A DNA stretch of 64,000 bases from a virus (IMGVR_UViG_3300028888_000007:1-64000), one strand, 5' to 3'; positions 8,979 through 23,012 are shown, numbered from the stretch's first letter. The notes: generated by a model from the letters alone, not told the origin. Numbers and translations: made by a program.

Positions 8979-9110
8979 CAGCAACTCAACCTGTGAAGGC
9001 GATGCTGAATTTTTCTAATTGTAAAGGCCTTCTTTGGGACAATAGGAATCCGTCCCAAGTTGTGCAATTTCTGCCAATGTCCTTTGCTTGCGAAAGTAGA
9101 GGGCATTTTT
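8979..9110 (+). ncRNA. Candidate structured small RNA (three hairpins, two GNRA loops)
   Basis: Stems 8979-9007, 9034-9058 and 9077-9106 with GU pairs, followed by a T run. Confidence 0.35.
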
Positions 9111-9226
9111 CTAGAATAAACTAGAATCTATTCTTTCTAAGTTTTATGCAAACTTATTCTAAAACTACTAGAGGCATACCTAACATTGCCTATACCTAAG
9201 AAAATATTATTTTATACATTATTTTA

Positions 9227-9258
9227 TTTGCATAATTAAAAATAATTTTGTAATTTTG
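9227..9258 (+). promoter_or_regulatory. Bacteroidota sigma-A-type promoter
   Basis: Core identical to 8477-8508. Confidence 0.9.
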
Positions 9259-9302
9259 CATTGATAAAATAATATTTATAAACTTTATAAACATTACACA
9301 AT

Positions 9303-9773
9303 ATGGATCACAACAAAAACATCCACTTGGAAATTGCTAAAGCCCTTCTAGATGAAAGGCAACTTGCACAAAACCTTAGTATGGCTATCTACCATGCTTT
9401 AGATGCCTTAGATGCTCAACTTCAACGTATGGTTCAAGAGAAAATCATTGAATGCGAATGCGATTACAGTGATGAAGAACTCCAGTATATCAAACTCTAC
9501 TGCAAGGATAGGATCAACAAATTAATGGTACTAGCTGGAATCTACACCTTTAATCCCAATGGTTGCTCTGGAGAACAAACCTATAAGTTCATCCAAGAAT
9601 TTACCCAGGTATCCTCGGTAAAAACTAAGACAGGAAACACTGAACATGCTGCTAACTTTAAAAACTACACCCAGGGACAATTTAATAGTCTCACCGATGA
9701 TTCTGAATCTGAAGACTATTATAATGAGAAAGCTTATCATGAATTCACAGCCTCAGGCGGATGCCGAGACTAA
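9303..9773 (+). CDS. Early hypothetical protein
   Basis: ORF track. Confidence 0.8.
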   Translation: MDHNKNIHLEIAKALLDERQLAQNLSMAIYHALDALDAQLQRMVQEKIIECECDYSDEELQYIKLYCKDRINKLMVLAGIYTFNPNGCSGEQTYKFIQEFTQVSSVKTKTGNTEHAANFKNYTQGQFNSLTDDSESEDYYNEKAYHEFTASGGCRD

Positions 9774-9799
9774 TGTATAACTTAATAAAATGTTAAACA

Positions 9800-10108
9800 A
9801 TGGACAGGTACGAATTAATTGATTACCTCGTTAATGAGGATGCTATTACCGAAGAAGCGGTAGAAATGAGTAACCTAGAACTTTTCCAAGAAGCTCTTGA
9901 ATGGAACGGTATCATTGGATATGACCAAGATATCAAAGACTGGATAGAACCTTACTATCAAGAACATTTCTCAAATAATCCAGAAGAACTTAATATCAGC
10001 ATAGACTGGATTAAGAAGAAGTACCATGAACTGGTAGACAAAGGTATTATCAAAGAAAACGAATCCGAACCTGCAGTAGAATATCCTAATGATATCTTCC
10101 TTCCTTAA
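9800..10108 (+). CDS. Early acidic hypothetical protein
   Basis: ORF track; E/D-rich. Confidence 0.8.
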   Translation: MDRYELIDYLVNEDAITEEAVEMSNLELFQEALEWNGIIGYDQDIKDWIEPYYQEHFSNNPEELNISIDWIKKKYHELVDKGIIKENESEPAVEYPNDIFLP

Positions 10109-10186
10109 ACTCTTAATAAAGTACCTGGTAATTAAACCCTACCAGGTACTAATTACAGTATTTCCAGAAAATAAAATCTAAAGAAT

Positions 10187-10552
10187 ATGCGAATAGGACA
10201 TCAAATTTATAACTACCTGAATGATTATACCGACAATGGTAGTTATTCTTTACTTAACCCAGTAGAGTTCATACCTAATTGGCCTGACAATACCATTGTT
10301 TCATACATATCAAGAGTTTACATTAACTGGAAAGAAGACCAAGTCTACTTAATGATAGTGACTAATGATATACCAGATGCTTTAACTATAAATGAATTCC
10401 TAAAGTGGATGGGTGGCCCAACAAAACCACAAAATTACAAACCCCTTTATCAACTTAGGGATCAACTTAAAGATATGGCTAAGAAAAAGTATCAAAGTAT
10501 GAGACGTATGAAAAGTGATATATTTACTCACTATATACGATCAATTAAGTAA
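10187..10552 (+). CDS. Early hypothetical protein
   Basis: ORF track. Confidence 0.75.
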   Translation: MRIGHQIYNYLNDYTDNGSYSLLNPVEFIPNWPDNTIVSYISRVYINWKEDQVYLMIVTNDIPDALTINEFLKWMGGPTKPQNYKPLYQLRDQLKDMAKKKYQSMRRMKSDIFTHYIRSIK

Positions 10553-10590
10553 TTCACAATAAACAAGTAATATCTTAAGCGGACACGTAT

Positions 10591-10812
10591 ATGAAAATCG
10601 AGAAAATATGCCCACATTGCCACAAACTTCAGACTCTTGAGGTTGATGATAGCCAATATTATGACTGGATGGCCGGCAAAAATATCCAGATAGCCTTTCC
10701 AAATCTATCTGCTGACCAAAGGGAGATCCTTATGTCAGGAATATGCCCAGAATGCTGGGAAGATATATTCGGAGAAGACGAAGATATCCAAGAAGAATCA
10801 GAGTACAACTAA
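10591..10812 (+). CDS. Small putative zinc-ribbon protein
   Basis: CPHC...CPEC pairs. Confidence 0.7.
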   Translation: MKIEKICPHCHKLQTLEVDDSQYYDWMAGKNIQIAFPNLSADQREILMSGICPECWEDIFGEDEDIQEESEYN

Positions 10813-10850
10813 CCTCAACCCAAGAAAATATTATTTTATACCATATTTTA

Positions 10851-10882
10851 TTTGCATAATTAAAAATAATTTTGTAATTTTG
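10851..10882 (+). promoter_or_regulatory. Bacteroidota sigma-A-type promoter
   Basis: Core identical to 8477-8508. Confidence 0.9.
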
Positions 10883-10904
10883 CAGTATTAAAATATGGTA
10901 TAAT

Positions 10905-10923
10905 TAACGGAGGCCAACCTCCA
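10905..10923 (+). repeat. Early-gene hairpin element, short variant
   Basis: TAAC-GGAGG-ccaa-CCTCC-A. Confidence 0.65.
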
Positions 10924-10952
10924 CAACATTAACAAACAAAACATTAAGAGTT

Positions 10953-11282
10953 ATGACACAGAAAGAACTCCTTGCTAAATGCACAGAAAGAGATCAGGCT
11001 TTCTACGATTTCTTTCACAGGGATCTGGACATCAAATCATTCACAGAATTGATAGACCCAGATCAAGTCCATTACACTTCATTGGTTGACTATCACTTGG
11101 TAGCTACTAGAACTGCGGTTTATTTACACAATTTTACTCTCGAGGCTAGGTACAAAGAAGATGCCTATAACTTCTACAAATATTTACGGGATAACATCTT
11201 CGAACCAGGTACTATTACTGACTACTGCATCTCACAGGTATCAGATCAGGACTTTTATATACTTACTATAACCGTTAACTAA
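10953..11282 (+). CDS. Early hypothetical protein
   Basis: ORF track. Confidence 0.8.
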   Translation: MTQKELLAKCTERDQAFYDFFHRDLDIKSFTELIDPDQVHYTSLVDYHLVATRTAVYLHNFTLEARYKEDAYNFYKYLRDNIFEPGTITDYCISQVSDQDFYILTITVN

Positions 11283-11283
11283 T

Positions 11284-11565
11284 ATGACTAAAAGAACTAA
11301 AGAAAATCTGGGCTTCTTCCTCTTAGGAGGAGCCCTTTCCTTCCTCTTTTGCGAATGGACTATCCTAGAAAGAGGGACTAAAATTGAACAACAAGCCGAG
11401 ATTATCAATGCCTACGATCAATATTGGCATACCGTAGAAGATCAAGATATGCTGCAAGTTGCAGATACAGATGATGAAACTCTAGTAAACTACGAAAAGG
11501 TCAGAGAGAACCTCGTAAAAATCACTAACTGGTACGAATCAAATCCTAATCACATTCATAAATAA
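11284..11565 (+). CDS. Hypothetical protein with N-terminal hydrophobic segment
   Basis: LGFFLLGGALSFLF. Confidence 0.7.
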   Translation: MTKRTKENLGFFLLGGALSFLFCEWTILERGTKIEQQAEIINAYDQYWHTVEDQDMLQVADTDDETLVNYEKVRENLVKITNWYESNPNHIHK

Positions 11566-11572
11566 TATCAAT

Positions 11573-11911
11573 ATGGAAACTCAAGGAACAACTTATTCAC
11601 TAGAGAAAGCAACTCTTATTATACCAGATGGAACTGTCCAAGAAATCATTCCAAAGACAAAGACGTTCACCTATGCAGCTATCCAAAGCTACATTAGGAC
11701 TGGATGCCTCATTCAACCTATTATCCTTAGGTACTGGACTAATCACAAAGACTTCAAGAAAATGAACCTCCTTTGCGACGAAGAAGGTATGATCAATGGC
11801 TCTAAGATGAACAAAAAAGCCTCTGAACTCTTAAAATCAATCCTGGGACCTAATGCTCAGGACTTATACGGAAATGTAATCTTCTTACCTAACAAATTAT
11901 TCAGACTATGA
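11573..11911 (+). CDS. DUF3846-like protein
   Basis: LLCDEEG...NKKAS...LYGNVIFL pattern. Confidence 0.6.
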   Translation: METQGTTYSLEKATLIIPDGTVQEIIPKTKTFTYAAIQSYIRTGCLIQPIILRYWTNHKDFKKMNLLCDEEGMINGSKMNKKASELLKSILGPNAQDLYGNVIFLPNKLFRL

Positions 11912-12366
11912 CAATCGGACAATTTATAGAGACTGAGGCTTATGTTAAAAGCCTCATCTCCATTCCAATCACCTACTTAGTATTTGGTGGACAAGGCTCA
12001 GTATACGTATCAAAACTCGAATACTGCCCAGCTAGGAAACAAGTAAAACTACTATCTGAACCAAAAGAAACTTATCAAGGTCCAGTTACAGTAAGAAACC
12101 TAGTTATCCTCCCAAATGATACCGAGATCCTCATAGAGGGATATCCTGGAGATGATACTACACCATTACAATGGGTAACTCCAGACCGTGTAGAATATCA
12201 TGATGATGGTTCTATAGATTTCCAAAGACTTCTCTCAGATGAGGAACATAAAATCCTATTTGATGCCAGCGAAGAACTCTACGGGATCATGGAGACATTA
12301 AAGAATCATGATATACCTGACGAAGAGATCAAGAAAATATTCACAACAGTAATCAAAGACATATAA
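11908..12366 (+). CDS. Early hypothetical protein
   Basis: ORF track; ATGA overlap. Confidence 0.75.
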   Translation: MTIGQFIETEAYVKSLISIPITYLVFGGQGSVYVSKLEYCPARKQVKLLSEPKETYQGPVTVRNLVILPNDTEILIEGYPGDDTTPLQWVTPDRVEYHDDGSIDFQRLLSDEEHKILFDASEELYGIMETLKNHDIPDEEIKKIFTTVIKDI

Positions 12367-12367
12367 T

Positions 12368-12526
12368 ATGCGAATCACTAGAGAAGACTACAAGGCATAC
12401 CTAAAAGAATTCCACAGATATGGAGTAGTAGAGGGTCTAACCAATATTTTTATCCAACGACATGAAGGTGATATTTCTAAAGCTTTTAAGGAAACGAATA
12501 TCAAAGCCATCGAATTAGATGATTAA
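12368..12526 (+). CDS. Small hypothetical protein (52 aa, below track cut-off)
   Basis: MRITREDYKAYLKEFHRYG...AIELDD, starts 1 nt after the previous stop. Confidence 0.6.
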   Translation: MRITREDYKAYLKEFHRYGVVEGLTNIFIQRHEGDISKAFKETNIKAIELDD

Positions 12527-12557
12527 CCAACCATTCAGGTAATATTATTAGCTCACT

Positions 12558-12608
12558 AGGTACAGCTTGGCCCATTTTAATAACTAAAATCCCAAGCTGT
12601 ACCTTTTT
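12558..12608 (+). terminator. Intrinsic terminator
   Basis: AGGTACAGCTTGG/CCAAGCTGTACCT 13-bp stem plus T run. Confidence 0.75.
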
Positions 12609-12699
12609 CCTGTCTAAACTCCAAAACCTATGGGTTCTACTATGGTTCTTACCTGCCATCTTACTTACCTCACTATTTTAAAAATTATATATAAAAATA

Positions 12700-12731
12700 T
12701 TTGCTGGTTTAAAATAATTTTTGTACCTTTG
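12700..12731 (+). promoter_or_regulatory. Bacteroidota sigma-A-type promoter
   Basis: TTTG-N20-TACCTTTG. Confidence 0.85.
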
Positions 12732-12791
12732 CAGAAATAAAAATAATGTATTAATTATTAACCGGCCACCGGCCACAAACATTCAAACATT

Positions 12792-13136
12792 ATGCAAACA
12801 ATCAACATTAACACCAACCTCTTCCAGGTTCTCAATGCAATTCAACATTGCCTTATTTCCAATGATACAGGCGATGCAGTTTACCAACTCACCCAATTCC
12901 ATCAATCCTACGATGACGAATCCTATATAACGGTACTTACATGGGGCATCAACCAACATCAGGAGGTCGATCTCGGAGAACTATCTAGAATTATTGCCGA
13001 ATACCTTCCACAGGACTTACAGGAACCATTCATCAAGGAAGAACACCTATTCCTAACCAATGGTCAGGACTCTCTTGCCATTCACTTTAACGATGCTACA
13101 ATCACATTAATCCTTCACTGCACCGGTCAATATTAA
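12792..13136 (+). CDS. Small acidic early protein
   Basis: 114 aa with only 1 Lys and 1 Arg. Confidence 0.75.
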   Translation: MQTININTNLFQVLNAIQHCLISNDTGDAVYQLTQFHQSYDDESYITVLTWGINQHQEVDLGELSRIIAEYLPQDLQEPFIKEEHLFLTNGQDSLAIHFNDATITLILHCTGQY

Positions 13137-13138
13137 AT

Positions 13139-13167
13139 CAAAGATAACGGAGGTCCAACCAACCTCA
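13139..13167 (+). repeat. Early-gene hairpin element
   Basis: CAAAGATAAC-G-GAGGT-ccaacca-ACCTC. Confidence 0.8.
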
Positions 13168-13196
13168 CTAACATTAACATTTAAACATCAAACATT

Positions 13197-13535
13197 ATGA
13201 TTATGAACAACAAAACAAATGGTTTCTCAACCAACAATGGAGTTTATCCTACAGTATTAATCACAGATGATCTCTGCGATTGCCAACCCAGCGGAGAGAA
13301 CAGATCCTACACCTACATTGATCACTCAGACGATGAGGACTGGCTCGATGAACATGATGACAATGGTGCTGAATACCAAATCCCAGATCGGGCTGCCTTT
13401 TACCAACTAATGGACGACATCTGCATGGCTATCCACAATGCCATAGATGGATATGAACCGGGAGATGACACTACCTGCGATGTACAGAATGCTATCTATC
13501 TTCTTAACGATATGCGTTCATTCGATCTCTTATAA
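13197..13535 (+). CDS. Small highly acidic early protein
   Basis: About 19 Asp + 5 Glu versus 1 Lys + 3 Arg by manual count. Confidence 0.75.
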   Translation: MIMNNKTNGFSTNNGVYPTVLITDDLCDCQPSGENRSYTYIDHSDDEDWLDEHDDNGAEYQIPDRAAFYQLMDDICMAIHNAIDGYEPGDDTTCDVQNAIYLLNDMRSFDLL

Positions 13536-13537
13536 TT

Positions 13538-13572
13538 CAAAGGTAACGGAGGAGCTAACCACTCCTCCACTT
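13538..13572 (+). repeat. Early-gene hairpin element
   Basis: CAAAGGTAAC-GGAGGAG-ctaacca-CTCCTCC-ACTT. Confidence 0.9.
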
Positions 13573-13586
13573 AAAACAATAAAACA

Positions 13587-14006
13587 ATGGAACTTATCAA
13601 CATTTCGATCAATTTAAACGAGGATCAATCATTATTTGACTACCTATCACAGGCTCTCGGTGAATTCACATCAATATGGAGACATATCAAACCAATAGGT
13701 CATCACTCTCAGGATTACAAAGACGAAAGCTGTTGGGACCTTATAACCATACCTATTTACACAGGGTACGGAACTTTCTACAATCTAGAGAACATTGAGG
13801 ATGACCATAAGAAAGAAGAAGCCTATAAAACAGCAGACAACTGCTTAACGGACTTCTTACACATATTCACTGGAAGAGATGACATACCTATCAAGGAAAA
13901 TATGTCAATCAACCTAACATCAGATACATCATATAGAGAACTCATAAATATCACTACATCTGATGACCTCATTCACATATATTACATTAACTCCGGGGAA
14001 TGGTAA
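13587..14006 (+). CDS. Acidic early protein
   Basis: ORF track. Confidence 0.75.
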   Translation: MELINISINLNEDQSLFDYLSQALGEFTSIWRHIKPIGHHSQDYKDESCWDLITIPIYTGYGTFYNLENIEDDHKKEEAYKTADNCLTDFLHIFTGRDDIPIKENMSINLTSDTSYRELINITTSDDLIHIYYINSGEW

Positions 14007-14036
14007 TAACCTTCCCCACTTAATACCCATACAGCT

Positions 14037-14453
14037 ATGAAAGCAAAGTACATCGACAAAACATTCCCAATCACACTCCAGGACCTTATAGATCTGGCTA
14101 AATCAGAAAACCTAGATCCAAAGGATCTGAAGTTAATCATGAACAGTAATTCAGCTGACCTATCATCATACGTACAATGTGCCATACTAAATCGGGATCA
14201 AGGCAATACCTCTATCGAACTATATACCTCAGCTGAAGATGGCTTTCACGAAGACCTATCCTTAAAAACAAAACCAAAATCACCAATGAAACAAGGTAAA
14301 ATACATCAAGCCGAAGAATATCTCCAAGAGATAAAGAACCTAGTAGAGAACCCAGAGGTACATATCACTACTGATTTCGATCTCGATAGCCTATCAAAGG
14401 CTACAGGTTACATCAAAGCTTTCATCCAAAAACAAACAAATAATAACAAATAA
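14037..14453 (+). CDS. Early hypothetical protein
   Basis: ORF track. Confidence 0.75.
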   Translation: MKAKYIDKTFPITLQDLIDLAKSENLDPKDLKLIMNSNSADLSSYVQCAILNRDQGNTSIELYTSAEDGFHEDLSLKTKPKSPMKQGKIHQAEEYLQEIKNLVENPEVHITTDFDLDSLSKATGYIKAFIQKQTNNNK

Positions 14454-14459
14454 CATAAC

Positions 14460-15160
14460 CCCAAAGCCATTATATATACTATATATATAACTAATATAAT
14501 ATACTGGCTTTGGGCTTTATAGTGTTACCTTATTCCTAATACCTACATTTTATCTTACAATATAGCTGATCTATACTCTAAAGCTAAATTCGATCTAAGC
14601 TAATACCTTCAGGGGGTTGGGGATTTCGATACCTCGAGGTACCTAATGGGTGGGAGGGGATACTATGCCCCACAAGGCCCCAAGACGATACTAGCAAGAC
14701 TACCCCTGGGCTTATCTACGCTATAGCTTATCTACGTTCCAGATATATAGCTAAATGGCCAGATTTATATTTACCTAATAAAGCCTAAATCCTAAGCCAG
14801 TTGGCCCCAATATATTGCATATTATATATAATATAATAAGTAGTAAAGGGGCCCCAAGGGGCATAGGATTTAGGGATAAAAGGCCCCTATAATATATACC
14901 TAAAGGCAACCATATAGGTAATATGGTAAGCAGACTAAGTGTACCTTTTAGGCCCCAAACTTACCTGGAATCATAGTAACAGGCTAATTAACAAACCATA
15001 TAAATACTAGTAAAACTAAAACAAAACTCTAGATTTAAATCTAACTAACCAACAGGCCCGTCCATATTCAGTCACTTAGACATCTGGCCACATTCTACCA
15101 TATTCATGGCTATTTGTGAAAGTCTGGCCCCAATGAGGTTGAGAAATAGGGCCCATAGGA
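14460..15160. repeat. Non-coding block rich in GGCC(CC) motifs, TA runs and short direct repeats
   Basis: No ORF; about 10 GGCC copies; CCCAAAGCCA/TGGCTTTGGG stem; GCTTATCTACG twice. Confidence 0.65.
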
Positions 15161-15194
15161 GCTCAAATTATTTTAAAAATTAGATATAAAAATA

Positions 15195-15226
15195 TTTGCG
15201 TATTTAAAATATTTTTTGTAATTTTG
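15195..15226 (+). promoter_or_regulatory. Bacteroidota sigma-A-type promoter
   Basis: TTTG-N20-TAATTTTG. Confidence 0.85.
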
Positions 15227-15299
15227 CATCTATAAAATATGGGTATAAATAATGCAGGGCCGACCCACTTGCCTATTACAAACTTAAATAACAAACATT

Positions 15300-15869
15300 A
15301 TGCACAACAACATCATTCAAACTCACATTGCAAACAACAACATTGCAATCATTGCCTGCTTTACCGGAGAATACTGCATGGCTAACTTTAATTACTGCTC
15401 AGAGGACGGTCCTAACTTCCCAAATGACCCTGCTTGGGTTAACTTAAAAACAGACAAAGACTGGGAAACTCTTGGTTCCCTACTACATGACCAAGGCTGG
15501 GACTGCATCGTTGCTATTCCTAATGATCAACTGCAATCCTACTTCGATCAAATCATGGAACAGGTAAACAAAACCTTCGAATATGCCTTCTCTCACAACG
15601 GACATCTCGGAGATGACACCTTCTATGATTACCTCCCAGATGCTGGCTTTATGCTCGGACAAATTGCTGCACATATCGCTATTCAATCCCATGCTACTCA
15701 AAATTGCCTACAAACTTGGGAACAACTCCTAAAACCTATGACAGACTTAGTTGCTAAATACGATGCTACTTACCATGAAGACGAAACTCTTGCCGATCAA
15801 ATCGATTACTCATCTCTGATCGAGGGACTTATCCTTCCTTTCACTGCAATCGATTCCACTAAACAATAA
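15300..15869 (+). CDS. Acidic early protein lacking arginine
   Basis: 189 aa with 0 Arg and 6 Lys. Confidence 0.75.
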   Translation: MHNNIIQTHIANNNIAIIACFTGEYCMANFNYCSEDGPNFPNDPAWVNLKTDKDWETLGSLLHDQGWDCIVAIPNDQLQSYFDQIMEQVNKTFEYAFSHNGHLGDDTFYDYLPDAGFMLGQIAAHIAIQSHATQNCLQTWEQLLKPMTDLVAKYDATYHEDETLADQIDYSSLIEGLILPFTAIDSTKQ

Positions 15870-15871
15870 TT

Positions 15872-15906
15872 CAAAGGTAACGGGAGGTCTAACCAACCTC
15901 CCACTT
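15872..15906 (+). repeat. Early-gene hairpin element
   Basis: CAAAGGTAAC-GGGAGGT-ctaacca-ACCTCCC-ACTT. Confidence 0.9.
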
Positions 15907-15921
15907 AAATACATTACAACA

Positions 15922-16347
15922 ATGAAAACAAAATCATTCATTATCCCACAGGGAACAATCAAGGACGTTAACAACGATGATAACTATATTCCTAACGAAG
16001 TAGTTTACACTATCATTGCCTTCAAGGATTCCATTAACCTAGAGGACAGTGACATTAATGGCTTTCCTAGACTCGATCTTAGTTTCCCTAACGGCTTTCC
16101 AAAAGGTATCAAACTTATCCAGGTCGAGGACCTTATCCATGACCTTAACTGGGAAACTAATGACCTAGAGGTTGACCAACATTTTAGGCTTACCTTTGAC
16201 CCAGAGCTTATATCGGAATCAGAGGTCCAATCCTTTGTTCAAGACGAACTTGAAATACTTGGAGACCCAGAGTTCACAGACGGTGCTTCTGCCAGGATCG
16301 TAGAACCTTTCGGTTACATTGACTTCTATATTTCTATACCATTCTAA
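15922..16347 (+). CDS. Acidic early protein
   Basis: ORF track; D/E-rich. Confidence 0.75.
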   Translation: MKTKSFIIPQGTIKDVNNDDNYIPNEVVYTIIAFKDSINLEDSDINGFPRLDLSFPNGFPKGIKLIQVEDLIHDLNWETNDLEVDQHFRLTFDPELISESEVQSFVQDELEILGDPEFTDGASARIVEPFGYIDFYISIPF

Positions 16348-16350
16348 TTA

Positions 16351-16384
16351 CAAAGGTAACGGAGGGACTAACCATCCCTCCCTT
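16351..16384 (+). repeat. Early-gene hairpin element
   Basis: CAAAGGTAAC-GGAGGGA-ctaacca-TCCCTCC-CTT. Confidence 0.9.
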
Positions 16385-16402
16385 AATAAAACTGTTAAAC
16401 AT

Positions 16403-16573
16403 ATGATCACAATCACTTACGAATGGCAAGATCCCATCACCTTGATCCAGGTTCCTTATACACATACTGAACCTACTCTTGACAAGGCTACCAAATTTCT
16501 CAAGGCCTTACTTTACTCGGCTATCATCGACAATCATCAATATTCACATCTTACAATCACAAAACATTCATAA
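16403..16573 (+). CDS. Small early protein (start revised to the ATG after the hairpin)
   Basis: In frame with track ORF 16319..16573; MITITYEWQDP... Confidence 0.6.
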   Translation: MITITYEWQDPITLIQVPYTHTEPTLDKATKFLKALLYSAIIDNHQYSHLTITKHS

Positions 16574-16575
16574 CT

Positions 16576-16863
16576 ATGAAAACAAAATCACTTAATTGCC
16601 TTATTACTTACATAGATACTTGCTTAGACGAGGCTGTCTCTACCTATATGCCAGATGATCTAGAAAAGTTTAAACTTGACATTCTAGCTACTGTAAATAA
16701 ATATCCAACTGCTGATAATATATACATAGACCTTTATCAAGGCCACTATATTATCGAAGTAGACGATGATGAATACATGGAACCTGGAGACTGTGGCTTT
16801 GGCTTTATCTCTTTACTTATAAACGAAAATCACTGTACTACATTTAATATATTCTATCAATAA
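16576..16863 (+). CDS. Acidic early protein
   Basis: ORF track. Confidence 0.7.
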   Translation: MKTKSLNCLITYIDTCLDEAVSTYMPDDLEKFKLDILATVNKYPTADNIYIDLYQGHYIIEVDDDEYMEPGDCGFGFISLLINENHCTTFNIFYQ

Positions 16864-16879
16864 CCTATTATATTGCCTG

Positions 16880-17240
16880 GGTTTCCAATCTAGAGGCCCA
16901 GGCTTTATTGTGTCCACTATCTATACCAGTAATATTAATAGCTAGCCACTGAGCTTATTACCGCCCCAACCTACAGACTTTCCATATAGCTTACTCCAAG
17001 CTTACCCCAAGGCTAATCTTAGATCCAGCCTTATTTTGTACCTGGCTAATCCCTGTGGCCAATATTGAGGCCCTAATATTTGACCATCTGGCCCCAATGG
17101 TTATAGAAAAGGCCCAAAGTTTCTGGCAATTAGAAAAGGCCCAAAGGAGTTATGGATTTAGCTAATCTGGCCTCAAATCTTAAATTAAAAGAACTGGCCC
17201 ACTATTCAGGTAATATGTTAAGCGGACCACGCCCGGGGTT
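16880..17240. repeat. Second non-coding GGCC-rich block
   Basis: About 8 GGCC copies; AAAAGGCCCAAAG twice; TCTGGCCCCAATG shared with the 15124 region. Confidence 0.6.
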
Positions 17241-17312
17241 GGGAACCGTGGATTTTATATTGCAAAAATAAAAAAAAATTTATAAATTTTCAGATATAAA
17301 TAAAAAAAAAGA

Positions 17313-17330
17313 GGGTGCAAATTTGCACCC
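17313..17330. repeat. GGTGCAAATTTGCACC palindrome copy 1 (likely minus-strand terminator)
   Basis: Palindrome preceded by an A run, downstream of the minus-strand ORF. Confidence 0.8.
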
Positions 17331-17348
17331 CTTTAAATACATTAAATT

Positions 17349-17543
17349 TTAGTCATCCCACCCCATCCTATTATTTCTATTTAATTGATTACATACTTTC
17401 AAATATACATCTATATAATCTTTTTCTTTACTACTTATATGAGACATGCCAAAATTTAAAATGATACCTAATCTCTCAATTTCTTTAATAGATAAATTTA
17501 AAATAATTTTTTCCATAATTTTTAATTTTAAATTGTTAAACAT
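17349..17543 (-). CDS. Small hypothetical protein
   Basis: ORF track; own promoter at 17562-17593. Confidence 0.55.
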   Translation of the reverse strand: MFNNLKLKIMEKIILNLSIKEIERLGIILNFGMSHISSKEKDYIDVYLKVCNQLNRNNRMGWDD

Positions 17544-17561
17544 TAATTTTTAATGGTGTTG

Positions 17562-17593
17562 CAAAGGTACAAACTATTTTTTATATTTGCAAG
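17562..17593 (-). promoter_or_regulatory. Bacteroidota sigma-A-type promoter
   Basis: Minus strand CTTG-N20-TACCTTTG. Confidence 0.75.
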
Positions 17594-17681
17594 AAAAAAT
17601 AAAAATAATTTAGAAAAATATTATTTAATTGATTTAAATCAAGAAAAGATATTTTTTTTTAAAAATTTTCTCAAAAATATT

Positions 17682-17711
17682 TTTGTAAATAAAAAATTAT
17701 TCGTACCTTTG
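17682..17711 (+). promoter_or_regulatory. Bacteroidota sigma-A-type promoter
   Basis: TTTG-N18-TACCTTTG. Confidence 0.7.
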
Positions 17712-17731
17712 CATCGTGTTTAAAACACAAG

Positions 17732-17748
17732 CGTTCTTTGAAATATTG
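17732..17748 (+). promoter_or_regulatory. boxA-like antitermination site
   Basis: CGTTCTTTGAAATATTG about 20 nt after the promoter, preceded by a GTGTT/AACAC mini-hairpin. Confidence 0.5.
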
Positions 17749-17872
17749 GTACAAACAAAGGTTTTTTAAAGTGATTAATTTTTAAACCATTTCTTTAAAT
17801 AAAATATCTGAATATAACAGAATTAAAGAATAAAATAAAAATATAAATCACTCTTAATTTATTATTTTAATT

Positions 17873-18208
17873 ATGCAAAAGTTTAATGAAGAAGAAAGAA
17901 AAATGCTTGCAGAAATGGGCATTTCTTTCGAGAGCGGTGGTAATTCTGAAATTTTGAAAAAAGAATTTCAAACCAAAAAATTCCGTCGTATTTGTAGGGA
18001 TAAAATGATAGAGTTATTAAAAATTTTATCTGCTTGCAAAACTAAGGAGCAGTTTAATACTTTTTACGCTAAATTTGCAAAAGAATATAAGTATTGGTTT
18101 ATTTCTCAGAACCCAAAGGACTCTTCTGTTTTTTCTCGTTTTCGCAACGACACAAACAGGGATTTTGTAGAAAAAGCGTATAAAGTTATTGAAAAATTTT
18201 CTAAATAG
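17873..18208 (+). CDS. Basic hypothetical protein in AT-rich island
   Basis: ORF track. Confidence 0.7.
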   Translation: MQKFNEEERKMLAEMGISFESGGNSEILKKEFQTKKFRRICRDKMIELLKILSACKTKEQFNTFYAKFAKEYKYWFISQNPKDSSVFSRFRNDTNRDFVEKAYKVIEKFSK

Positions 18209-18212
18209 TTTT

Positions 18213-18250
18213 ATTAATTAAGTGGTGCAAATTTGCACCACTTAATTAAT
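18213..18250. repeat. 38-bp perfect palindrome, copy 2
   Basis: ATTAATTAAGTGGTGCAAA|TTTGCACCACTTAATTAAT. Confidence 0.9.
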
Positions 18251-18260
18251 TTACAAGATT

Positions 18261-18554
18261 ATGAAGAAAAAAATTAAATTGCTTTTAAAGCGGTTACGAA
18301 TTTACGGTGGTTTAAAGACTGATATTAAAAGCGCACAATTTTTATTATTAGTCTTTAGAGATACGCAATTTCTTAAATTACCTAAAAAACAACAAAAGAT
18401 AATTTTAGAAAATTTACTTTCTTATTTTGATAACTTAATTTTAGGTATTGATACACCAAAGAAACAAAATAAACATTTTAATTCTTTGGAAATTCAAAAC
18501 CATATCAGAAATAAAGTTATTGATTTATGTAATTATCCAACACCCAAATATTAA
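18261..18554 (+). CDS. Basic hypothetical protein in AT-rich island
   Basis: ORF track. Confidence 0.65.
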   Translation: MKKKIKLLLKRLRIYGGLKTDIKSAQFLLLVFRDTQFLKLPKKQQKIILENLLSYFDNLILGIDTPKKQNKHFNSLEIQNHIRNKVIDLCNYPTPKY

Positions 18555-18588
18555 ATTAAGATGGTGCAAATTGCACCATCTTAATTTA
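18552..18588. repeat. Palindrome copy 3 (18-bp arms, 1-nt centre)
   Basis: TAAATTAAGATGGTGCAA-A-TTGCACCATCTTAATTTA. Confidence 0.9.
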
Positions 18589-18722
18589 TTGTTATTGGTA
18601 TGGATAAAATTATAAAATTAGTGCAAATATCAAATCGTTTAATTGTTTATTAACTATGTATAATTTTTCAAGGTGTAAAAAATGCCATAACTTATATTGT
18701 TGGTGGCGTATTTTAAACAAAA

Positions 18723-18935
18723 ATGAGAGTAAAATCGAAGGACTTAATTATGAGCAAAAAAAACACATGTCTCATTGCTCAAGATTCATTAAATCTAAAT
18801 AATATGGCAAAAGTTGTATTAGAGCTCGATTTTGAAACGTTTGATACGTTAATAAATCAATTAGAGAATTTTATTCTTGAAACGGACAGCGAAGAAGAAA
18901 AACAAATAATTCGTGAATTAATTGAGAAACTTTAA
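18723..18935 (+). CDS. Small hypothetical protein (start uncertain)
   Basis: ORF track. Confidence 0.5.
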   Translation: MRVKSKDLIMSKKNTCLIAQDSLNLNNMAKVVLELDFETFDTLINQLENFILETDSEEEKQIIRELIEKL

Positions 18936-19103
18936 TTAAAAAAACATGGTTAAAGAAGTATCTTTATTAAACGTTGAAAAAATCTTTCTTCGAAAAAACG
19001 GTGTTATTAATTTAAAATTTAAATATCCAATACCTTTAAAAAGAGCTAAAGAAATTATTAGTAATTACTCTTATAAGGTAGCAATATTTAAATAACTATA
19101 ATT

Positions 19104-19129
19104 AAGAGGGTGCAAATTTGCACCCTCTT
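19104..19129. repeat. Palindrome copy 4 (likely plus-strand terminator)
   Basis: AAGAGGGTGCAAA|TTTGCACCCTCTT followed by a T run. Confidence 0.85.
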
Positions 19130-19459
19130 TTTTTTTATTCTTACATATTTAATCAATGAAAAATGAAAAACACAAAAATCCATTTTAAGCCCTTAAAATT
19201 TTAAATATAATGTTGTACCTTACTTTTATTTTTAAATCGATTTATGCACGTCCACCGTTCCCCACTTTGGATGCCTGGAGTTTGGCATATACGATAAGGG
19301 AATCCGTTCCCCTCCCTAAGTACTACTACCTAGCATATACGTATAAGGGATTCCTGACATCCCACACAAGCACACAGCACAAGGCACACCACACAAAAGC
19401 CCAGGCAATATACTACTACCTGGACCTCCTATATGTATTAAAGGGCTTCTTAGATATTC

Positions 19460-19654
19460 TCATCTAATATCCTTAATCAATTTACTTATAACACTATCTA
19501 AATGAAACCTAAGCTCCTTATCTTCTCTAAACTTATACCTTATAGATTTTAGGATTTCGATATCTAACCTAGTTTTCTCCTTCTCAAGGTCAGGTTCTTT
19601 CTTCTCCTTAGGATATGGAGTAAACCTACATATCTTACCCTTTCTGTTCGCCAT
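19460..19654 (-). CDS. Small hypothetical protein
   Basis: Last gene of the overlapping minus-strand operon. Confidence 0.65.
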   Translation of the reverse strand: MANRKGKICRFTPYPKEKKEPDLEKEKTRLDIEILKSIRYKFREDKELRFHLDSVISKLIKDIR

Positions 19655-19895
19655 ATCTCTCTAACTCTTTACAAAAATCCCTAACCTTAATAAACACATC
19701 CACTAAATTTTTACCATCAAATGATTGTTCTCCTTTTGTATTACCTTTTTTAAATTCTACCTTACCAGTAAAGTATGGAGTACCCCTTAATAGAGATCTA
19801 CCATATACAATCATAATACTAGTTATATTCTCTACATTAAATGGGTTTACTATACAAGATGGTAAATTAGAATTACCAAATATATCATTACTCAT
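19635..19895 (-). CDS. Hypothetical protein
   Basis: ORF track. Confidence 0.7.
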   Translation of the reverse strand: MSNDIFGNSNLPSCIVNPFNVENITSIMIVYGRSLLRGTPYFTGKVEFKKGNTKGEQSFDGKNLVDVFIKVRDFCKELERYGEQKG

Positions 19896-19897
19896 AA

Positions 19898-20125
19898 TTA
19901 CCTTCTTTTTAGTGAATTAAGGCAATCCTTAATAATAAATAACGGATAAATAACCCAAATCTTCAATAAACCAATTATAAAACCTTGTTTCATTGCCTTA
20001 CAAGCAACATCATCTTTATCTTTATATAACCAGAATGCTATAGCAGTTTTAAATGCTGGTATAAAAGCTACGCCATATACTATGGCAATAATAATACAAA
20101 AATTGTACCAAAACGTGTGATTCAT
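19898..20125 (-). CDS. Small membrane protein
   Basis: Two hydrophobic segments. Confidence 0.7.
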   Translation of the reverse strand: MNHTFWYNFCIIIAIVYGVAFIPAFKTAIAFWLYKDKDDVACKAMKQGFIIGLLKIWVIYPLFIIKDCLNSLKRR

Positions 20126-20484
20126 TGTCCTATAAATTTTTCTATTATACTTCTAAATTCCTTAAGCCAACCTTGGTCAACCCTAATATCCTTCTTCTCT
20201 ATTTCTTTCTTTATTGCAGGGATGAGATTGATCAACTGAACTCGATTGATATAAGCTTCATAAATTTTATAACCTTCACTACCTGGTTCATAGAGATAAG
20301 CCTTAGCTTCAGACCTTCTGCCAGCTCTTTTAAAGTAACCCTTTTTAAGGATCTCTCGGTTTAATACTATGCCGTTAGCAAGAACAGCAGTTCCATTCTC
20401 CTTGTCTACTCTGATAACCTTAGTCCTATCGATAAGATTAGCTTCTACATAGACAACTTCCATTTCTGGTTTGAGCTTTGTCAT
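20122..20484 (-). CDS. Hypothetical protein
   Basis: ORF track; downstream of promoter 20525-20556. Confidence 0.75.
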   Translation of the reverse strand: MTKLKPEMEVVYVEANLIDRTKVIRVDKENGTAVLANGIVLNREILKKGYFKRAGRRSEAKAYLYEPGSEGYKIYEAYINRVQLINLIPAIKKEIEKKDIRVDQGWLKEFRSIIEKFIGQ

Positions 20485-20524
20485 TGTGGTTTAATATTTA
20501 ATTATCAATAAATTTTTATCAATG

Positions 20525-20556
20525 CAAAATTACAAAATTATTTTTAATTATGCAAA
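20525..20556 (-). promoter_or_regulatory. Bacteroidota sigma-A-type promoter
   Basis: Reverse complement of the 8477-8508 core. Confidence 0.9.
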
Positions 20557-20559
20557 TTT

Positions 20560-20772
20560 TTATATTAAATAATTATGTATAACTTCGGTTTGTTGAGAGA
20601 AGAGCCCATAGTGGTTATATGAAAGATTATCTAGGCGATCATAGATTAAATCTTCAACCTCTTCTTCTGATTTACCTTGGATAGGGAATAGTGTAATTAA
20701 CTGACCAAGAAAATCAGAATCTTCATCTATTTGGCAATAATTTTCATACCAATTAACAGTTACTTTGTACAT
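20560..20772 (-). CDS. Small acidic hypothetical protein
   Basis: ORF track. Confidence 0.6.
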   Translation of the reverse strand: MYKVTVNWYENYCQIDEDSDFLGQLITLFPIQGKSEEEVEDLIYDRLDNLSYNHYGLFSQQTEVIHNYLI

Positions 20773-20873
20773 ACGATCCTATTATTTTATATTATTATAA
20801 TATCATATAGAACTCCGAGTATAAGATGTTCTCGGCAATACTCATATCCATTTTATTATAAACAATTTAAATT

Positions 20874-21422
20874 ATGGCAATTAACGAAAAACAATGGGCC
20901 TTTGCTAAAAGGGTCTACCAAGCAGCCATGGGTGGAGAAATACACCCATTATTTGTAACAGCTCAAGCTGTCCTAGAAACAGGATGGGGAGCTCATACTA
21001 TTGGAGAGAATAATATTTTTGGTATTACCAAAGGATCATGGACAGGTCCAATAGATATGGTAGAAACCAAAGAGTATTTTAAGCATGACAAAAAGACATT
21101 CACTCCACCTGATAAGATACTCAGGAAAATAAAACTAGACAGTGGACGGTGGCAGTACACAGTAAAACGAGCTTTCCGTCACTATGAGACTCTCTCAGAA
21201 TGCCTTGCAGATCATACTTCTATCTTCAAGAAGTCGATGTATGACGATGCTTGGCCATACAGAAATAAGCCTTTAATGTTTGCTTTGAAGATCACTGATA
21301 ATAATAAAGCGAAATACGCTACCTCTCCAGTTTATTATCAGAGTCTAAGATCGTTAATAATAACCATCGGTGCAAGAGAGGATTGGTTAAAGGAAAAAGA
21401 AAATGAAAATAGTACAAAATAA
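20874..21422 (+). CDS. GH73 glucosaminidase/FlgJ-like peptidoglycan hydrolase (probable endolysin)
   Basis: AQAVLETGWG, NNIFGI, FRHYETL, YATSPVY motifs. Confidence 0.85.
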   Translation: MAINEKQWAFAKRVYQAAMGGEIHPLFVTAQAVLETGWGAHTIGENNIFGITKGSWTGPIDMVETKEYFKHDKKTFTPPDKILRKIKLDSGRWQYTVKRAFRHYETLSECLADHTSIFKKSMYDDAWPYRNKPLMFALKITDNNKAKYATSPVYYQSLRSLIITIGAREDWLKEKENENSTK

Positions 21423-21747
21423 GATAATACCTCTTCCTGGATATCTAGCTATAAATATAGCTGGTATAATTTTTACAAGGGACAAAGAAAAATTTCTTAA
21501 AAATCCAGCCTTTTCAAGACACGAATATACCCATACGCTTCAGTGGAAAGAGCTTTGGTATGTTGGTTTTCTACCAATTTACTTTTATTTTTATTTAAAA
21601 AACAGACTTTGGTATGGTATGGACCATAAAAAAGCTTATAAGCATATACCATTAGAGGCTGAAGCTTATAATACTCAAAATACAGACTGGTATAATGAGC
21701 ATCGAGAGAAGTTTGCTTGGAGGTATTACATTAAAATGTTAAAATAA
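21403..21747 (+). CDS. HExxH-containing hypothetical protein
   Basis: RHEYTH motif; EAEAY downstream. Confidence 0.65.
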   Translation: MKIVQNKIIPLPGYLAINIAGIIFTRDKEKFLKNPAFSRHEYTHTLQWKELWYVGFLPIYFYFYLKNRLWYGMDHKKAYKHIPLEAEAYNTQNTDWYNEHREKFAWRYYIKMLK

Positions 21748-21748
21748 T

Positions 21749-22771
21749 ATGAAAAAAACTAGAGTGTTAGGGGTTGCAGGTGGAGCAGGAGCTCTTCTGC
21801 ATCCCTTTTTAAATGACAAAAATTACCAAATTCTCGGTAATATAGAGCCAAGAATGGTGTTTCACACTAAGAATGAAGAGAATTGGGAGCTTAATTTTGG
21901 TAAAATACCGTTTAAAACCGAATTTTTTGACCTAAAGAAGCGTCCAAACATCATAGTTGGGAGCCCAGACTGTGGAGCTAGCTCCACTATGAGACTCTCA
22001 AAAGTAAAAGAACTCGGTAACCCAGAGAAAAATAAGACCATTAACCTATTAATTCAGGCAGTTTTAACTTATAAACCCGAGATTTTTCTGTTAGAGAACG
22101 TACCTAAGCTCTTAAACTTAATGCCAACTGATGTATGGGAAAGTATTTTTAAAAAATATGACCTTATATTTCATAATCATTCTATGGCAGACCTTGGTAA
22201 TTCACAAGTATCAAGGAAAAGGTTATTAATTATAGGGGTTAAAAAAGGTAATTCTAAGTTTAATAAAGAAAGTTTCCAAAAGATTTTCCAAGTTAATACC
22301 CCAAAAGTCACTAGAAATTTACTGGAGGCAGCCTATTTTGAAGGAAATAATACCAATTATATGCCGCCGAAAAATAAAATAATGGCGATGTATGATTATC
22401 GTAAACTACCTAAGAAAGAAAACCTTACGGTTAAAAGGATACACTACCTTTGGACCCATGACTTCAAATCAGAAAAGAAATGGCCTATTAAAACAGCTAA
22501 AATGTCTACTCTCCCAGGAGTATATAGGTTAGAATCAGATAGGCCACCACTTACTGTAAGACCTGCAGATAGGCAATTTAGGCCTGATGGATGGCCTCTT
22601 GGAATAGTGGATATCAGGAATATTATGGGATTCCCTAAAACTTTTAAGGTTTACTACGATCCAGATGAACCCATTTATTGGATGAATAAGGCTAGGAATG
22701 TATTTGCAAAGGGTGCCTGTTATGAGGTAGGATTATGGTTTAAGGATTGCCTGGATAACACTACCTTTTAA
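21749..22771 (+). CDS. DNA (cytosine-5)-methyltransferase, divergent
   Basis: Motif IV GSPDCG, motif VI LLENV, motif VIII QVSRKR, motif IX-like region; motif I degenerate (GVAGGAG). Confidence 0.8.
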   Translation: MKKTRVLGVAGGAGALLHPFLNDKNYQILGNIEPRMVFHTKNEENWELNFGKIPFKTEFFDLKKRPNIIVGSPDCGASSTMRLSKVKELGNPEKNKTINLLIQAVLTYKPEIFLLENVPKLLNLMPTDVWESIFKKYDLIFHNHSMADLGNSQVSRKRLLIIGVKKGNSKFNKESFQKIFQVNTPKVTRNLLEAAYFEGNNTNYMPPKNKIMAMYDYRKLPKKENLTVKRIHYLWTHDFKSEKKWPIKTAKMSTLPGVYRLESDRPPLTVRPADRQFRPDGWPLGIVDIRNIMGFPKTFKVYYDPDEPIYWMNKARNVFAKGACYEVGLWFKDCLDNTTF

Positions 22772-23012
22772 CATTTATTAACAAAAATATATAGATATAT
22801 AATAAGCAAAGCTTATATATCTATATATTTTTATAGGCCTTTATATATTAGCTTTAGCTATATATAAGAAAATCGTTAATAAGCTGATATTTAAGTTCTT
22901 TGCTTATTAGAGCTTTCTCGGTAAACCTCGAAAGCGATTGGCTGAAATCAGCCAATCAGAAGTTAGATATTAGAGCTATATAACTGTGTTAAATTTTAAT
23001 TTCTATTGATAA

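Follow-up and report, generated by a model that had tools for sequence, protein, structure and literature searches.

The early RNase III sites of phage T7 (R0.3–R1.3) are irregular duplexes of roughly 20 bp that are placed after a stop codon, ahead of the next start, and punctuate the polycistronic early mRNA. The hairpin element analysed here, from a myovirus-like phage of 85.5 kb (G000), occupies the same position, and a decoupling of neighbouring message stabilities has been proposed for both. The element differs in its stem of just 7 bp and in the conservation of its loop and its single-stranded leader (AAGGUAAC), which argues for another enzyme or binder than RNase III. A T7-type site needs a duplex of roughly two helical turns, so this identity was rejected, and the comparison with T7 in the original prediction of the element falls with it. 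RNase Y cleavage can be guided by a downstream hairpin, as at cggR-gapA of Bacillus subtilis. The same arrangement is reported for saePQRS of Staphylococcus aureus (PMC5449607). With such sites the element would share an intergenic single-stranded cut a few nucleotides 5' of a hairpin, and a hairpin at the 5' end of a stabilised downstream message (both proposed here), and Bacteroidales hosts encode RNase Y. RNase Y sites, however, have no loop or leader family common to different replicons, whereas 13–15 positions of the element are nearly fixed across unrelated mobile elements, an apparent invariance that stems in part from search patterns that fixed leader and loop, relaxed searches finding limited variation.

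Several other described systems join a free stem to conserved neighbouring bases. The nut sites of phage lambda (boxA plus boxB) consist of a single-stranded conserved stretch followed by a short hairpin, fixed in its loop and free in its stem; they lie in early operons, 3' of an early gene and 5' of terminators, and are read as RNA. The element has this arrangement too, as architecture only, given that its leader and loop were set by the search patterns and vary to a limited extent when these are relaxed. It has no sequence similarity to boxA or boxB, its loop is 7 nt rather than 5, it occurs in several copies per operon at a constant distance from the start codon, and BLAST, whose reach a divergent N would exceed, found no N-like partner; moreover, its loop is constant across unrelated carriers and does not co-vary with a phage-specific protein. 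The PeSL modules of T4 are conserved in sequence and combine an early promoter with an adjacent terminator stem-loop. Like them, the element is a repeated regulatory sequence bordering variable small early genes, where relatives have gained or lost cassettes; the originally suggested likeness to PeSL nevertheless breaks down, since the element has no promoter (a -7 box, TAnnTTTG, lies within 70 nt upstream in only 1 of 65 instances) and no U tract, and what it conserves is structure, loop and leader. Integron attC sites are likewise free-stem hairpins with conserved flanks directly after a cassette ORF, and their cassettes also vary among relatives. The element differs in lacking inverse core sites (its 5' flank, the leader, and its 3' flank, ACAA, AUAA or ACUU, are not inverted repeats), in its non-palindromic flanks, in folding on the sense strand and in its fixed ATG spacing. 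Finally, N4-type hairpin promoters are short free-stem hairpins with conserved neighbouring bases upstream of early genes; their loops, on the template strand, are of 3 nt, and they require a giant virion RNA polymerase. The element, in contrast, has a 7-nt loop and folds on the sense strand. The largest ORF of the phage encodes 1132 aa, and a search of its genome for RNA_pol (PF00940) gave no match, as did the same search in control genomes.

A conserved hairpin that folds on the mRNA-sense strand

The element has a consensus of about 37 nt: AAGG(U/A/C)AA(C/U), a 7-bp stem of any sequence, the loop C(U/C)AACCA, the stem complement and a trailer A(C/U)AA. The stem is bounded by an unpairable C and A; a 4-bp extension occurs in the copies of this phage alone and gains no support from variants elsewhere. 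A covariance model, made from 14 copies in relatives, three copies in the window (the 64,000-nt stretch of the genome that was analysed) and the variant at 13133, finds exactly four copies in the whole phage, all on the + strand between 13134 and 16389; the remaining 21.5 kb outside the window hold none. These four score 60.5, 60.0, 55.1 and 35.5 bits (E 2e-10 to 2e-5), and the best match that is not a member 15.3 bits (E 0.24).

The hairpins named in the original prediction are present where it placed them, with paired stems and the loop CTAACCA, or in one case CCAACCA. The sequence CAAAGGTAAC is exact at 13538, 15872 and 16351 and has one mismatch at 13139. The copy at 13533–13576 (CAAAGGUAAC, GGAGGAG/CUCCUCC, loop CUAACCA, trailer ACUUAAAA) is canonical, scores 60.5 bits (E 2e-10), folds at -12.4 kcal/mol (z -3.8) and fills the spacer between ORFs 13197–13535 and 13587–14006. 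Two further canonical copies with the same loop lie at 15867–15910, between ORFs 15300–15869 and 15922–16347 (GGGAGGU/ACCUCCC; 60.0 bits; -12.5 kcal/mol, z -2.7), and at 16346–16389, between ORFs 15922–16347 and 16403–16573 (GGAGGGA/UCCCUCC; 55.1 bits; -13.2 kcal/mol, z -1.9). The fourth, at 13134–13177 between ORFs 12792–13136 and 13197–13535, is a weak variant with the leader CAAAGAUAAC, a 5-bp stem (GAGGU/ACCUC) and the loop CCAACCA (35.5 bits, E 2e-5; -5.7 kcal/mol, z -1.1). Scans against Rfam 15 leave the elements unmatched both at E<=1 (9000–24000) and at E<=10 (13120–13600), a point in favour of the original prediction.

Two patterns, neither of which required the stem to pair, were used to collect other instances. 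With the first, all 34 stretches have complementary arms; with the second, 35 of 46 distinct versions form at least six of the seven pairs. Counts of Watson-Crick pairs are bimodal, chance matches having 0–4 and real ones 5–7. Six of the seven stem pairs covary, with a covariation score of 0.93 against 0.21 in shuffled and about 0.2 in slid controls. These results support the proposal that what is under selection is a folded single strand whose leader and loop are fixed and whose stem changes are compensatory. Internal mismatches are G.T in 14 cases and A.C in 2 (p=0.004), and since a strand that tolerates G·U rather than A·C is the one that pairs, it is the mRNA-sense strand that folds. The GGAGG/CCTCC content of the stems, to which attention had been drawn as SD/anti-SD sequence, turns out to be peculiar to the copies of this phage; stems elsewhere include GCCCCGC, GACTGGT, GGCAAGG and GGAACGG.

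Position in operons and among relatives

The element is almost always intercistronic, in a spacer of about 55 nt between two co-directional ORFs of accessory or early operons. In 59 of 62 instances the stem begins 6–14 nt after a stop codon, a tight spacing that may be simple genome compaction; the next ATG follows the stem by a median of 17 nt (typically 14–25 nt), and then comes an A-rich, G-poor tract. In the phage itself, as originally described, the copies stand after stop codons and ahead of the next ATG: stop codons end 3–4 nt 5' of AAAGG, and the ATG is 18–27 nt 3' of the stem. Small acidic ORFans neighbour the element in this phage.

First genes behind promoters are without the element. 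The Bacteroidetes-type promoter pattern occurs at 11 sites, where 1.7 are expected, and this pattern search places a promoter (TTTG, 20 nt, TAccTTTG) at 12700–12731 (+) before the first element-bearing operon (genes 12792–14453) and another at 15195–15226 (+) before the second (genes 15300–16863). Terminator-like hairpins on the same strand close these operons at 14457–14522 (a long inverted repeat with 19-nt arms, 89% complementary) and 16875–16903 (11 pairs with a T-rich tail, from a terminator scan), and an intrinsic-terminator-like hairpin with a 12-bp stem and a T run, read directly from the sequence, closes the preceding operon at 12559–12608 (+). The element itself was rejected as an intrinsic terminator: no U tract follows the hairpin, whose trailer A(C/U)AA is A-rich, and only the reverse complement resembles a weak terminator, on a strand that would carry A.C mismatches.

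Three variant forms had been listed at 10905, 12758 and 13995. All are real hairpins, but none is detected as a family member by the covariance model. Those at 10909–10922 (+; GGAGG-CCAA-CCUCC, 8.6 bits, E 5.6) and 12762–12774 (+; CCGGCCACCGGCC) are 5'UTR mini-hairpins that closely follow the Bacteroidetes-type promoters at 10851–10882 and 12700–12731, and were rejected as members. All early 5'UTRs of the phage have such a small hairpin and an ACAA-type A/C-rich leader, and lack AAGGUAAC. The hairpin at 13995–14017 (+; GGGGAA/UUCCCC, -14.0 kcal/mol, z -3.0) encloses the upstream stop codon in an 11-nt loop, UGGUAAUAACC. This loop contains GGUAAUAACC, the trailer ACUUAA is as in the family, and an ATG follows 19 nt later; the hairpin may be a degenerate relative of the family.

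Genes around the copies vary among relatives, as was anticipated. A relative with about 80% nucleotide identity (L289) is without both element-bearing modules: one, of 1.6 kb, holds the copies at 13139 and 13538 and has the 13995 hairpin as its 3' edge (the junction with L289 is at 14036), and the other holds those at 15872 and 16351. The flanking resident genes of L289 are coupled directly, their stop and start codons overlapping or abutting, whereas the inserted genes of G000 are set apart from their neighbours by the element. Other lineages keep the whole spacer and replace either flanking ORF, and L156 and L092/L166 have single genes between two near-identical copies of the element. Mosaic breakpoints fall at stop and start codons, that is, at the spacer edges, and none inside the element. 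The role of homology handle, part of the original prediction, would be compatible with such junctions.

Carriers and the likely reader of the motif

Beyond the four copies of the phage, the motif is found in over 60 different versions, which come from other IMG/VR contigs and from elements integrated into Bacteroidales genomes. The carriers are unrelated phages, proviruses and integrative elements of Bacteroidales, including Prevotella-type gut bacteria, with 1–4 copies per element. Among all prokaryotic genomes, paired matches are confined to Bacteroidales, save for a contig that is probably a contaminant and a match probably due to chance; within the Prevotella family just 4 of 151 genomes have the motif. 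Bacterial genomes hold 2–3 copies, in mobile-element contexts with integrase, primase, Rep3, methylase, SSB and ArdC-like genes, and among the neighbours DUF2958, SSB and ArdC-like genes are typical of the entry phase. The motif is absent from host core genomes, the covariance model gives no rrn matches in five host genomes, and neither AAGGNAAY nor a YAACC hairpin occurs in the 214-nt leader examined, that of a Prevotella 16S gene. By BLAST, the phage has only two ORFs in common with the loci around other copies and eight with four complete carrier genomes, no ORF being universal; no protein common to all carriers was found by this method, beyond whose reach small divergent N-like proteins would lie. 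The element is therefore not the phage-specific signal it was taken for. Because its carriers share almost no proteins and host core genes lack it, its reader would most likely be a conserved host factor.

Possible functions

What the motif does is still a guess. The reading that we tentatively prefer, with limited confidence, is that of a portable intercistronic signal for mRNA processing and stabilisation. Immediately 3' of the upstream stop codon, the single-stranded AAGGUAAC leader would be cut by a host endoribonuclease. Candidates are RNase Y and an RNase E/G enzyme, both encoded in five carrier host genomes, and conceivably RNase P. This would leave the GC-rich hairpin as the 5' end of the downstream message, an end resembling the small 5'UTR hairpins behind the phage's primary promoters, where the lack of AAGGUAAC is expected if only sites that have to be cut need the leader. 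There the hairpin would protect the message against decay that depends on the 5' end and keep the A-rich zone where ribosomes land free of pairing. Accessory genes standing side by side could thus be expressed independently, including where a cassette has entered an operon of tightly coupled genes, and because the stems within one transcript differ, copies would neither mispair with one another nor be lost by deletion between them. Cleavage is pure inference, however; a sequence-specific binding protein is indicated instead, and were a general host RNase the reader, host operons could be expected to use the motif, yet they are without it.

The strictly intercistronic position (stem 6–14 nt after the stop, ATG 14–25 nt after the stem, A-rich and G-poor tract) would suit a role in translation restart or standby, which we consider unlikely. 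Bacteroidales ribosomes largely ignore Shine-Dalgarno sequences. Here the hairpin with its fixed leader and loop would hold or recruit ribosomes (or bS1) after upstream termination so that the downstream ORF starts without one, the element replacing, in inserted cassettes, the stop/start overlap that couples resident genes in L289. Loop and leader have no complementarity to Prevotella 16S or 23S rRNA, though, promoter-proximal first genes do not use the element, and we know of no bacterial precedent. Distinctly less probable is a nut-like signal, in which a boxA-like leader and boxB-like hairpin would load host Nus-type factors, or a small and rapidly evolving protein of the element's own, onto RNA polymerase and alter pausing or read-through of the terminators closing the early operons. 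The conserved 8–9 nt leader, short free-stem hairpin and conserved loop fit it, in this phage the copies come after genes one and two of operons closed by strong terminator-like hairpins, and N-like proteins would have escaped the BLAST comparison. Two copies per operon, and copies in consecutive spacers, would be unusual for nut sites, on the other hand; the Prevotella rrn leader has no similar motif, a loop common to unrelated elements argues against element-specific N-like partners, and the constant ATG distance is left unexplained.

Two further readings are more doubtful again. It is very unlikely to be an attC-like recombination site, at which a tyrosine recombinase would move gene-plus-hairpin units through folded single-stranded DNA, even though conserved flanks around a free stem directly after ORFs, single genes between near-identical copies, junctions at spacer edges and whole modules missing from a close relative all recall cassette exchange. 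A tyrosine-recombinase-like protein is encoded by this phage and three of four other carriers; that of the phage (ORF 35057–36100) is divergent and integrase-like (phrog_1, E 6e-16, with a Pfam score under the cut-off) and matches no NCBIfam model, the integron integrase included. Inverted RYYYAAC/GTTRRRY core sites are missing and the flanks are non-palindromic, the G.T mismatches are on the ORF-sense and not the bottom strand, breakpoints lie at stop and start codons outside the element, and a role in expression is suggested by the constant distance to the ATG and the A-rich trailer. To an RNA decoy or tag, binding a host RNA-binding or RNA-targeting (defence or decay) protein and so protecting the early transcripts of incoming elements, with no part in how the flanking genes are themselves expressed, we give the least credence of all. 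The motif's confinement to mobile elements and absence from host core genes, its entry-phase neighbours (and the small acidic ORFans here) and a loop and leader specific enough to suggest a dedicated binding protein would accord with it; but a decoy would have no need of strict intercistronic placement and fixed stop and ATG distances, and 1–4 copies per element are few.

A further possibility, itself rather improbable, is that the element is a host-read restart cassette for bacteria that initiate independently of Shine-Dalgarno sequences, a mini-IRES-like or termination-reinitiation RNA module. If so, a host ribosome-associated or RNA-binding protein would read the AAGGUAAC leader and AACC loop, and mobile elements would carry the module with each accessory gene, so that any gene could be translated in any operon.

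Copies of the element and their transcription units

The window spans bases 1-64000 of the IMG/VR record of the phage, whose genome (85.5 kb, direct terminal repeats, 36% G+C) encodes terminase, portal, major head protein, tail sheath, tape measure and baseplate proteins. No T7-like RNA polymerase domain was detected in it and its largest ORF is 1132 aa, which argues that the phage depends on host transcription; a hairpin promoter for a phage RNA polymerase was rejected, given the lack of that domain and of any giant ORF. Nine strong promoters of the Bacteroidetes type (TTTG, about 20 nt, TAnnTTTG), almost identical in sequence, were located in the window, seven of them co-oriented on the plus strand between 5183 and 17711 (at 5183, 8477, 9227, 10851, 12700, 15195 and 17682) and two on the minus strand (20556 and 60175). 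Several of the nine share a 32-nt identity, and each early promoter is followed by a small 5'UTR hairpin with ACC or CCA in its loop and then by an ACAA-type leader.

Four elements, all on the plus strand, fall within two promoter-to-terminator units, 12700 to about 14520 (copies at 13134-13177 and 13533-13576) and 15195 to about 16900 (copies at 15867-15910 and 16346-16389). Reading positions 10800-16500 confirmed the sequences quoted in the original prediction: CAAAGGTAAC is exact at 13538, 15872 and 16351, has one mismatch at 13139, and leads each time into a fully paired stem of 7 bp (5 bp at 13150) with a CTAACCA or CCAACCA loop. A covariance model built from 14 copies found in other viral contigs together with three of the window and the 13133 variant scored the window copies at 60.5, 60.0, 55.1 and 35.5 bits; the rest of the window reached at most 15 bits, and the search found no copy in the last 21.5 kb of the genome. 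The model recognised none of the forms at 10905, 12758 and 13995 that had been proposed as variant members. The hairpins at 10905 and 12758 are small 5'UTR hairpins immediately behind promoters; that at 13995 overlaps the upstream stop codon, keeps GGUAA and UAACC within its loop, has the same trailer as the elements, and may be a decayed copy. The GGAGG/CCUCC stem content stressed in the prediction is peculiar to the copies of this phage and is no feature of the family. Copies 13538 and 15872 have the same non-consensus flanks (UAAUUC 5' of the leader and ACUUAAA 3' of the stem) and stems that differ at four pairs, which suggests selection to keep the stems within one genome distinct, perhaps to avoid mispairing or deletion.

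Several other features of the phage were recorded. Between the two element-bearing operons lies a 740-nt non-coding stretch (14454-15194) in which GGCCCC(A) recurs several times and a 44-nt imperfect inverted repeat (14784-14874) is accompanied by many shorter dyads. In the relative L289 this stretch is about 75% conserved, unlike the gene cassettes on both sides; a role as an origin, a regulatory hub or a structured RNA is conceivable. A divergent tyrosine-recombinase-like ORF at 35057-36100 (+) matches the phrog_1 integrase family (E 6e-16), with a Pfam score under the cut-off and no NCBIfam match; its position is inside the morphogenesis module, in a phage that has direct terminal repeats, and such a gene is also present in three of the four other carrier genomes. 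The 324-aa early protein at 3497-4471 (+) has a ThyX-type (Thy1) thymidylate synthase domain in its C-terminal half.

Covariation and distribution of the family

An IMG/VR scan that fixed the leader, the loop and just two bases of the stem gave 34 stretches with many different stems, and the unconstrained arm bases were complementary in all 34. A looser pattern gave at least 116 stretches; among the matches listed, 35 of 46 distinct stem/loop versions had at least six of seven pairs. When versions were not filtered for pairing, the number of Watson-Crick pairs was bimodal, either 0-4 or 5-7. Among 69 distinct copies, both-sided changes were seen in six of the seven stem pairs, and the covariation score was 0.93, whereas shuffles gave 0.21 and slid registers about 0.2; since these copies were picked for at least six pairs, their 97% pairing is partly due to selection, and the unfiltered counts are the fair test. 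The predicted combination of a fixed leader and loop with compensatory stem changes is thus borne out. Where five or more of a version's pairs were strictly Watson-Crick, the remaining pairs at internal positions were G.T in 14 cases and A.C in 2 (p = 0.004); G.U pairs are tolerated on the ORF-sense strand only, so the molecule that folds is the mRNA or, less probably, sense-strand ssDNA.

The looser pattern was also applied to one genome per prokaryotic species. Unpaired chance matches occurred across all phyla, and paired matches were confined to Bacteroidales (Prevotella, Segatella, Leyella, Parabacteroides, Paludibacteraceae, Limimorpha and Bacteroidaceae) save two exceptions. One, a 1.4-kb 'Dechloromonas' contig of low coverage (0.77x) identical to a Leyella segment, is probably a contaminant; the other, a Cyclobacteriaceae match with six of seven pairs, looks like chance. 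Bacterial copies are clustered, two to three per genome, among genes for integrase, large primase, Rep3, orphan methylases, SSB, ArdC-like and DUF2958 proteins, and only 4 of 151 sampled Prevotella-family genomes contain the motif. Host core genes were accordingly rejected as its users, and the clustering, the mobile-element contexts and the rarity together argue that it is a mobile-element signal. Several cultured strains carry it, among them Segatella copri N016-9, Prevotella merdae Marseille-P4119, Prevotella illustrans A2931, Leyella stercorea An906 and Parabacteroides faecalis AGMB00274. A megablast search found no close relatives of the phage among GenBank phages. A single segment (loci L166, L173, L232, L246, L092, L178), in which two elements (stems GGCAAGC and GGCAAGT) flank a 118-aa gene with an SSB gene adjoining, is common to Leyella stercorea, a Paludibacteraceae MAG, an uncultured Bacteroides, Parabacteroides faecalis and an IMG/VR contig; its presence across these hosts marks it as part of a widely transferred element, and the 1.4-kb 'Dechloromonas' contig is identical to it.

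Position between cistrons and cassette exchange

Position was surveyed in 65 distinct instances with enough flanking sequence. The upstream ORF ends 6-14 nt 5' of the stem in 59 of 62, its stop codon often overlapping the first A's of the leader, and the downstream ORF starts a median of 17 nt 3' of the stem, after a trailer rich in A and poor in G. In only one of the 65 do the 70 nt upstream contain a promoter -7 box. Given this spacing and the near-absence of upstream -7 boxes, the element joins two cistrons and practically never lies in a 5'UTR or at the end of an operon.

Genes between copies were predicted to vary among relatives, and they do. L289 is syntenic with the phage at about 80% nucleotide identity, and in it the ortholog of gene 14037-14453 is joined straight to the preceding operon via two small overlapping ORFs. 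At that junction the phage has a 1.6-kb insert with a terminator, a promoter, three ORFans and copies 13139 and 13538, and the hairpin at 13995, a possible degenerate copy, lies at the insert's 3' edge. L289 has not conserved the second element-bearing unit either, and six related loci contain no element. In another lineage the spacer is identical from leader to ATG while the upstream or downstream ORF has been swapped, with breakpoints at the stop and start codons. Elsewhere genes lie between two copies with identical or near-identical stems (L156; L092/L166). Gene 15922-16347, itself flanked by two copies, has no relatives in IMG/VR.

Candidate readers and function

Rfam scans were negative, in line with the expectation that no described family would match, and the literature, searched by words, yielded nothing relevant on the motif or on any hairpin already described for Bacteroidales phages. 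An antisense promoter was considered, since TAnnTTTG occurs in the reverse complement of CAAAGGTAAC, and rejected: a -33 TTTG at suitable spacing is lacking and relatives do not conserve the final G. On the minus strand, the hairpin plus GUUACCUUUG at 13150-13166 and 16361-16381 is terminator-like by a generic scan and GTTACCTTTG contains the -7 box TAnnTTTG; both were judged coincidental.

When the ORFs of the phage were compared by BLAST with those around 147 element-bearing loci and in four whole carrier genomes, a helicase, an HNH endonuclease, a holin and a few structural proteins were shared with some carriers, no protein was common to all carriers compared, and no family was consistently near the element; a shared element-encoded partner protein was therefore rejected. 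A WYL_2/Sm-like protein adjoins one copy, but it is absent from this phage and from carriers G001 and G002. That ORF, in a Prevotella illustrans element (L266, 8848-9552), has two WYL_2 (Sm-like SH3 barrel) domains and ends directly at the copy; the family is present in carriers G003 and G004 and missing in others. For a mobile-element signal with no common carrier protein, a conserved host factor is the most economical reader. The Prevotella 16S and 23S rRNAs have no site complementary to loop or leader, and the rrn leader has no counterpart of the motif. Mimicry of rRNA was rejected because 16S has only AAGGUA in common with the leader; the resemblance of AAGGUAAC to the h44/h45 junction of 16S applies to E. 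coli-type sequences and is absent from the hosts. The loop has just one consistent complement, UGGUUAG of the tRNA D-loop; since folded tRNA buries this sequence, the pairing was treated as chance. A search for host antisense RNA complementary to loop and leader gave only the elements themselves and scattered chance matches. Pairing of leader GGU with loop ACC in a pseudoknot was rejected, as was a helix extended by leader and trailer (AGGU/ACUU), since leader variants in which A or C replaces the U are uncompensated.

We rate the element as a putative protein-read cis-acting hairpin in polycistronic mobile-element mRNAs. Our tentative preference is for a portable intercistronic processing and stabilising signal, a reading that is possible rather than probable. 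A host endonuclease would cut in the single-stranded leader, just 3' of the upstream stop, after which the hairpin would cap the downstream message and its landing zone would be kept open. The strict two-cistron context speaks for this, as do the link to inserted cassettes and the primary 5'UTRs of the phage, which have a hairpin and an ACAA-type leader with no AAGGUAAC box. Both RNase Y and an RNase E/G enzyme are encoded by the hosts. Against the model stands mainly the invariant loop: known RNases of that kind would not read it, and a dedicated binding protein is implied. Hairpin-guided RNase sites and nut sites are similar in architecture, but the element fails on testable defining features of each named family. 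Translation restart, by which the element would serve the downstream cistron, is unlikely. The same holds more strongly for nut-like antitermination. We consider an attC-like DNA site very improbable, and that the hairpin is a decoy RNA slightly more so.

Bacteroidales are dominant gut and rumen bacteria whose post-transcriptional control is poorly understood; to our knowledge they largely lack Shine-Dalgarno-guided initiation and are without Hfq and ProQ. As about 15 near-fixed positions plus a covarying stem recur in phages, proviruses and integrative elements without common genes, the motif appears to mark a specific, so far unnamed host RNA-recognition activity exploited by mobile elements. 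Knowing its reader would help to explain how this phylum punctuates polycistronic messages; it would also provide a compact part with which to assemble multi-gene constructs in Bacteroides and Prevotella, and a sequence tag by which arrays of early or accessory (possibly anti-defence) genes could be located in uncultured Bacteroidales viruses. The cultured carrier strains make the question directly testable.
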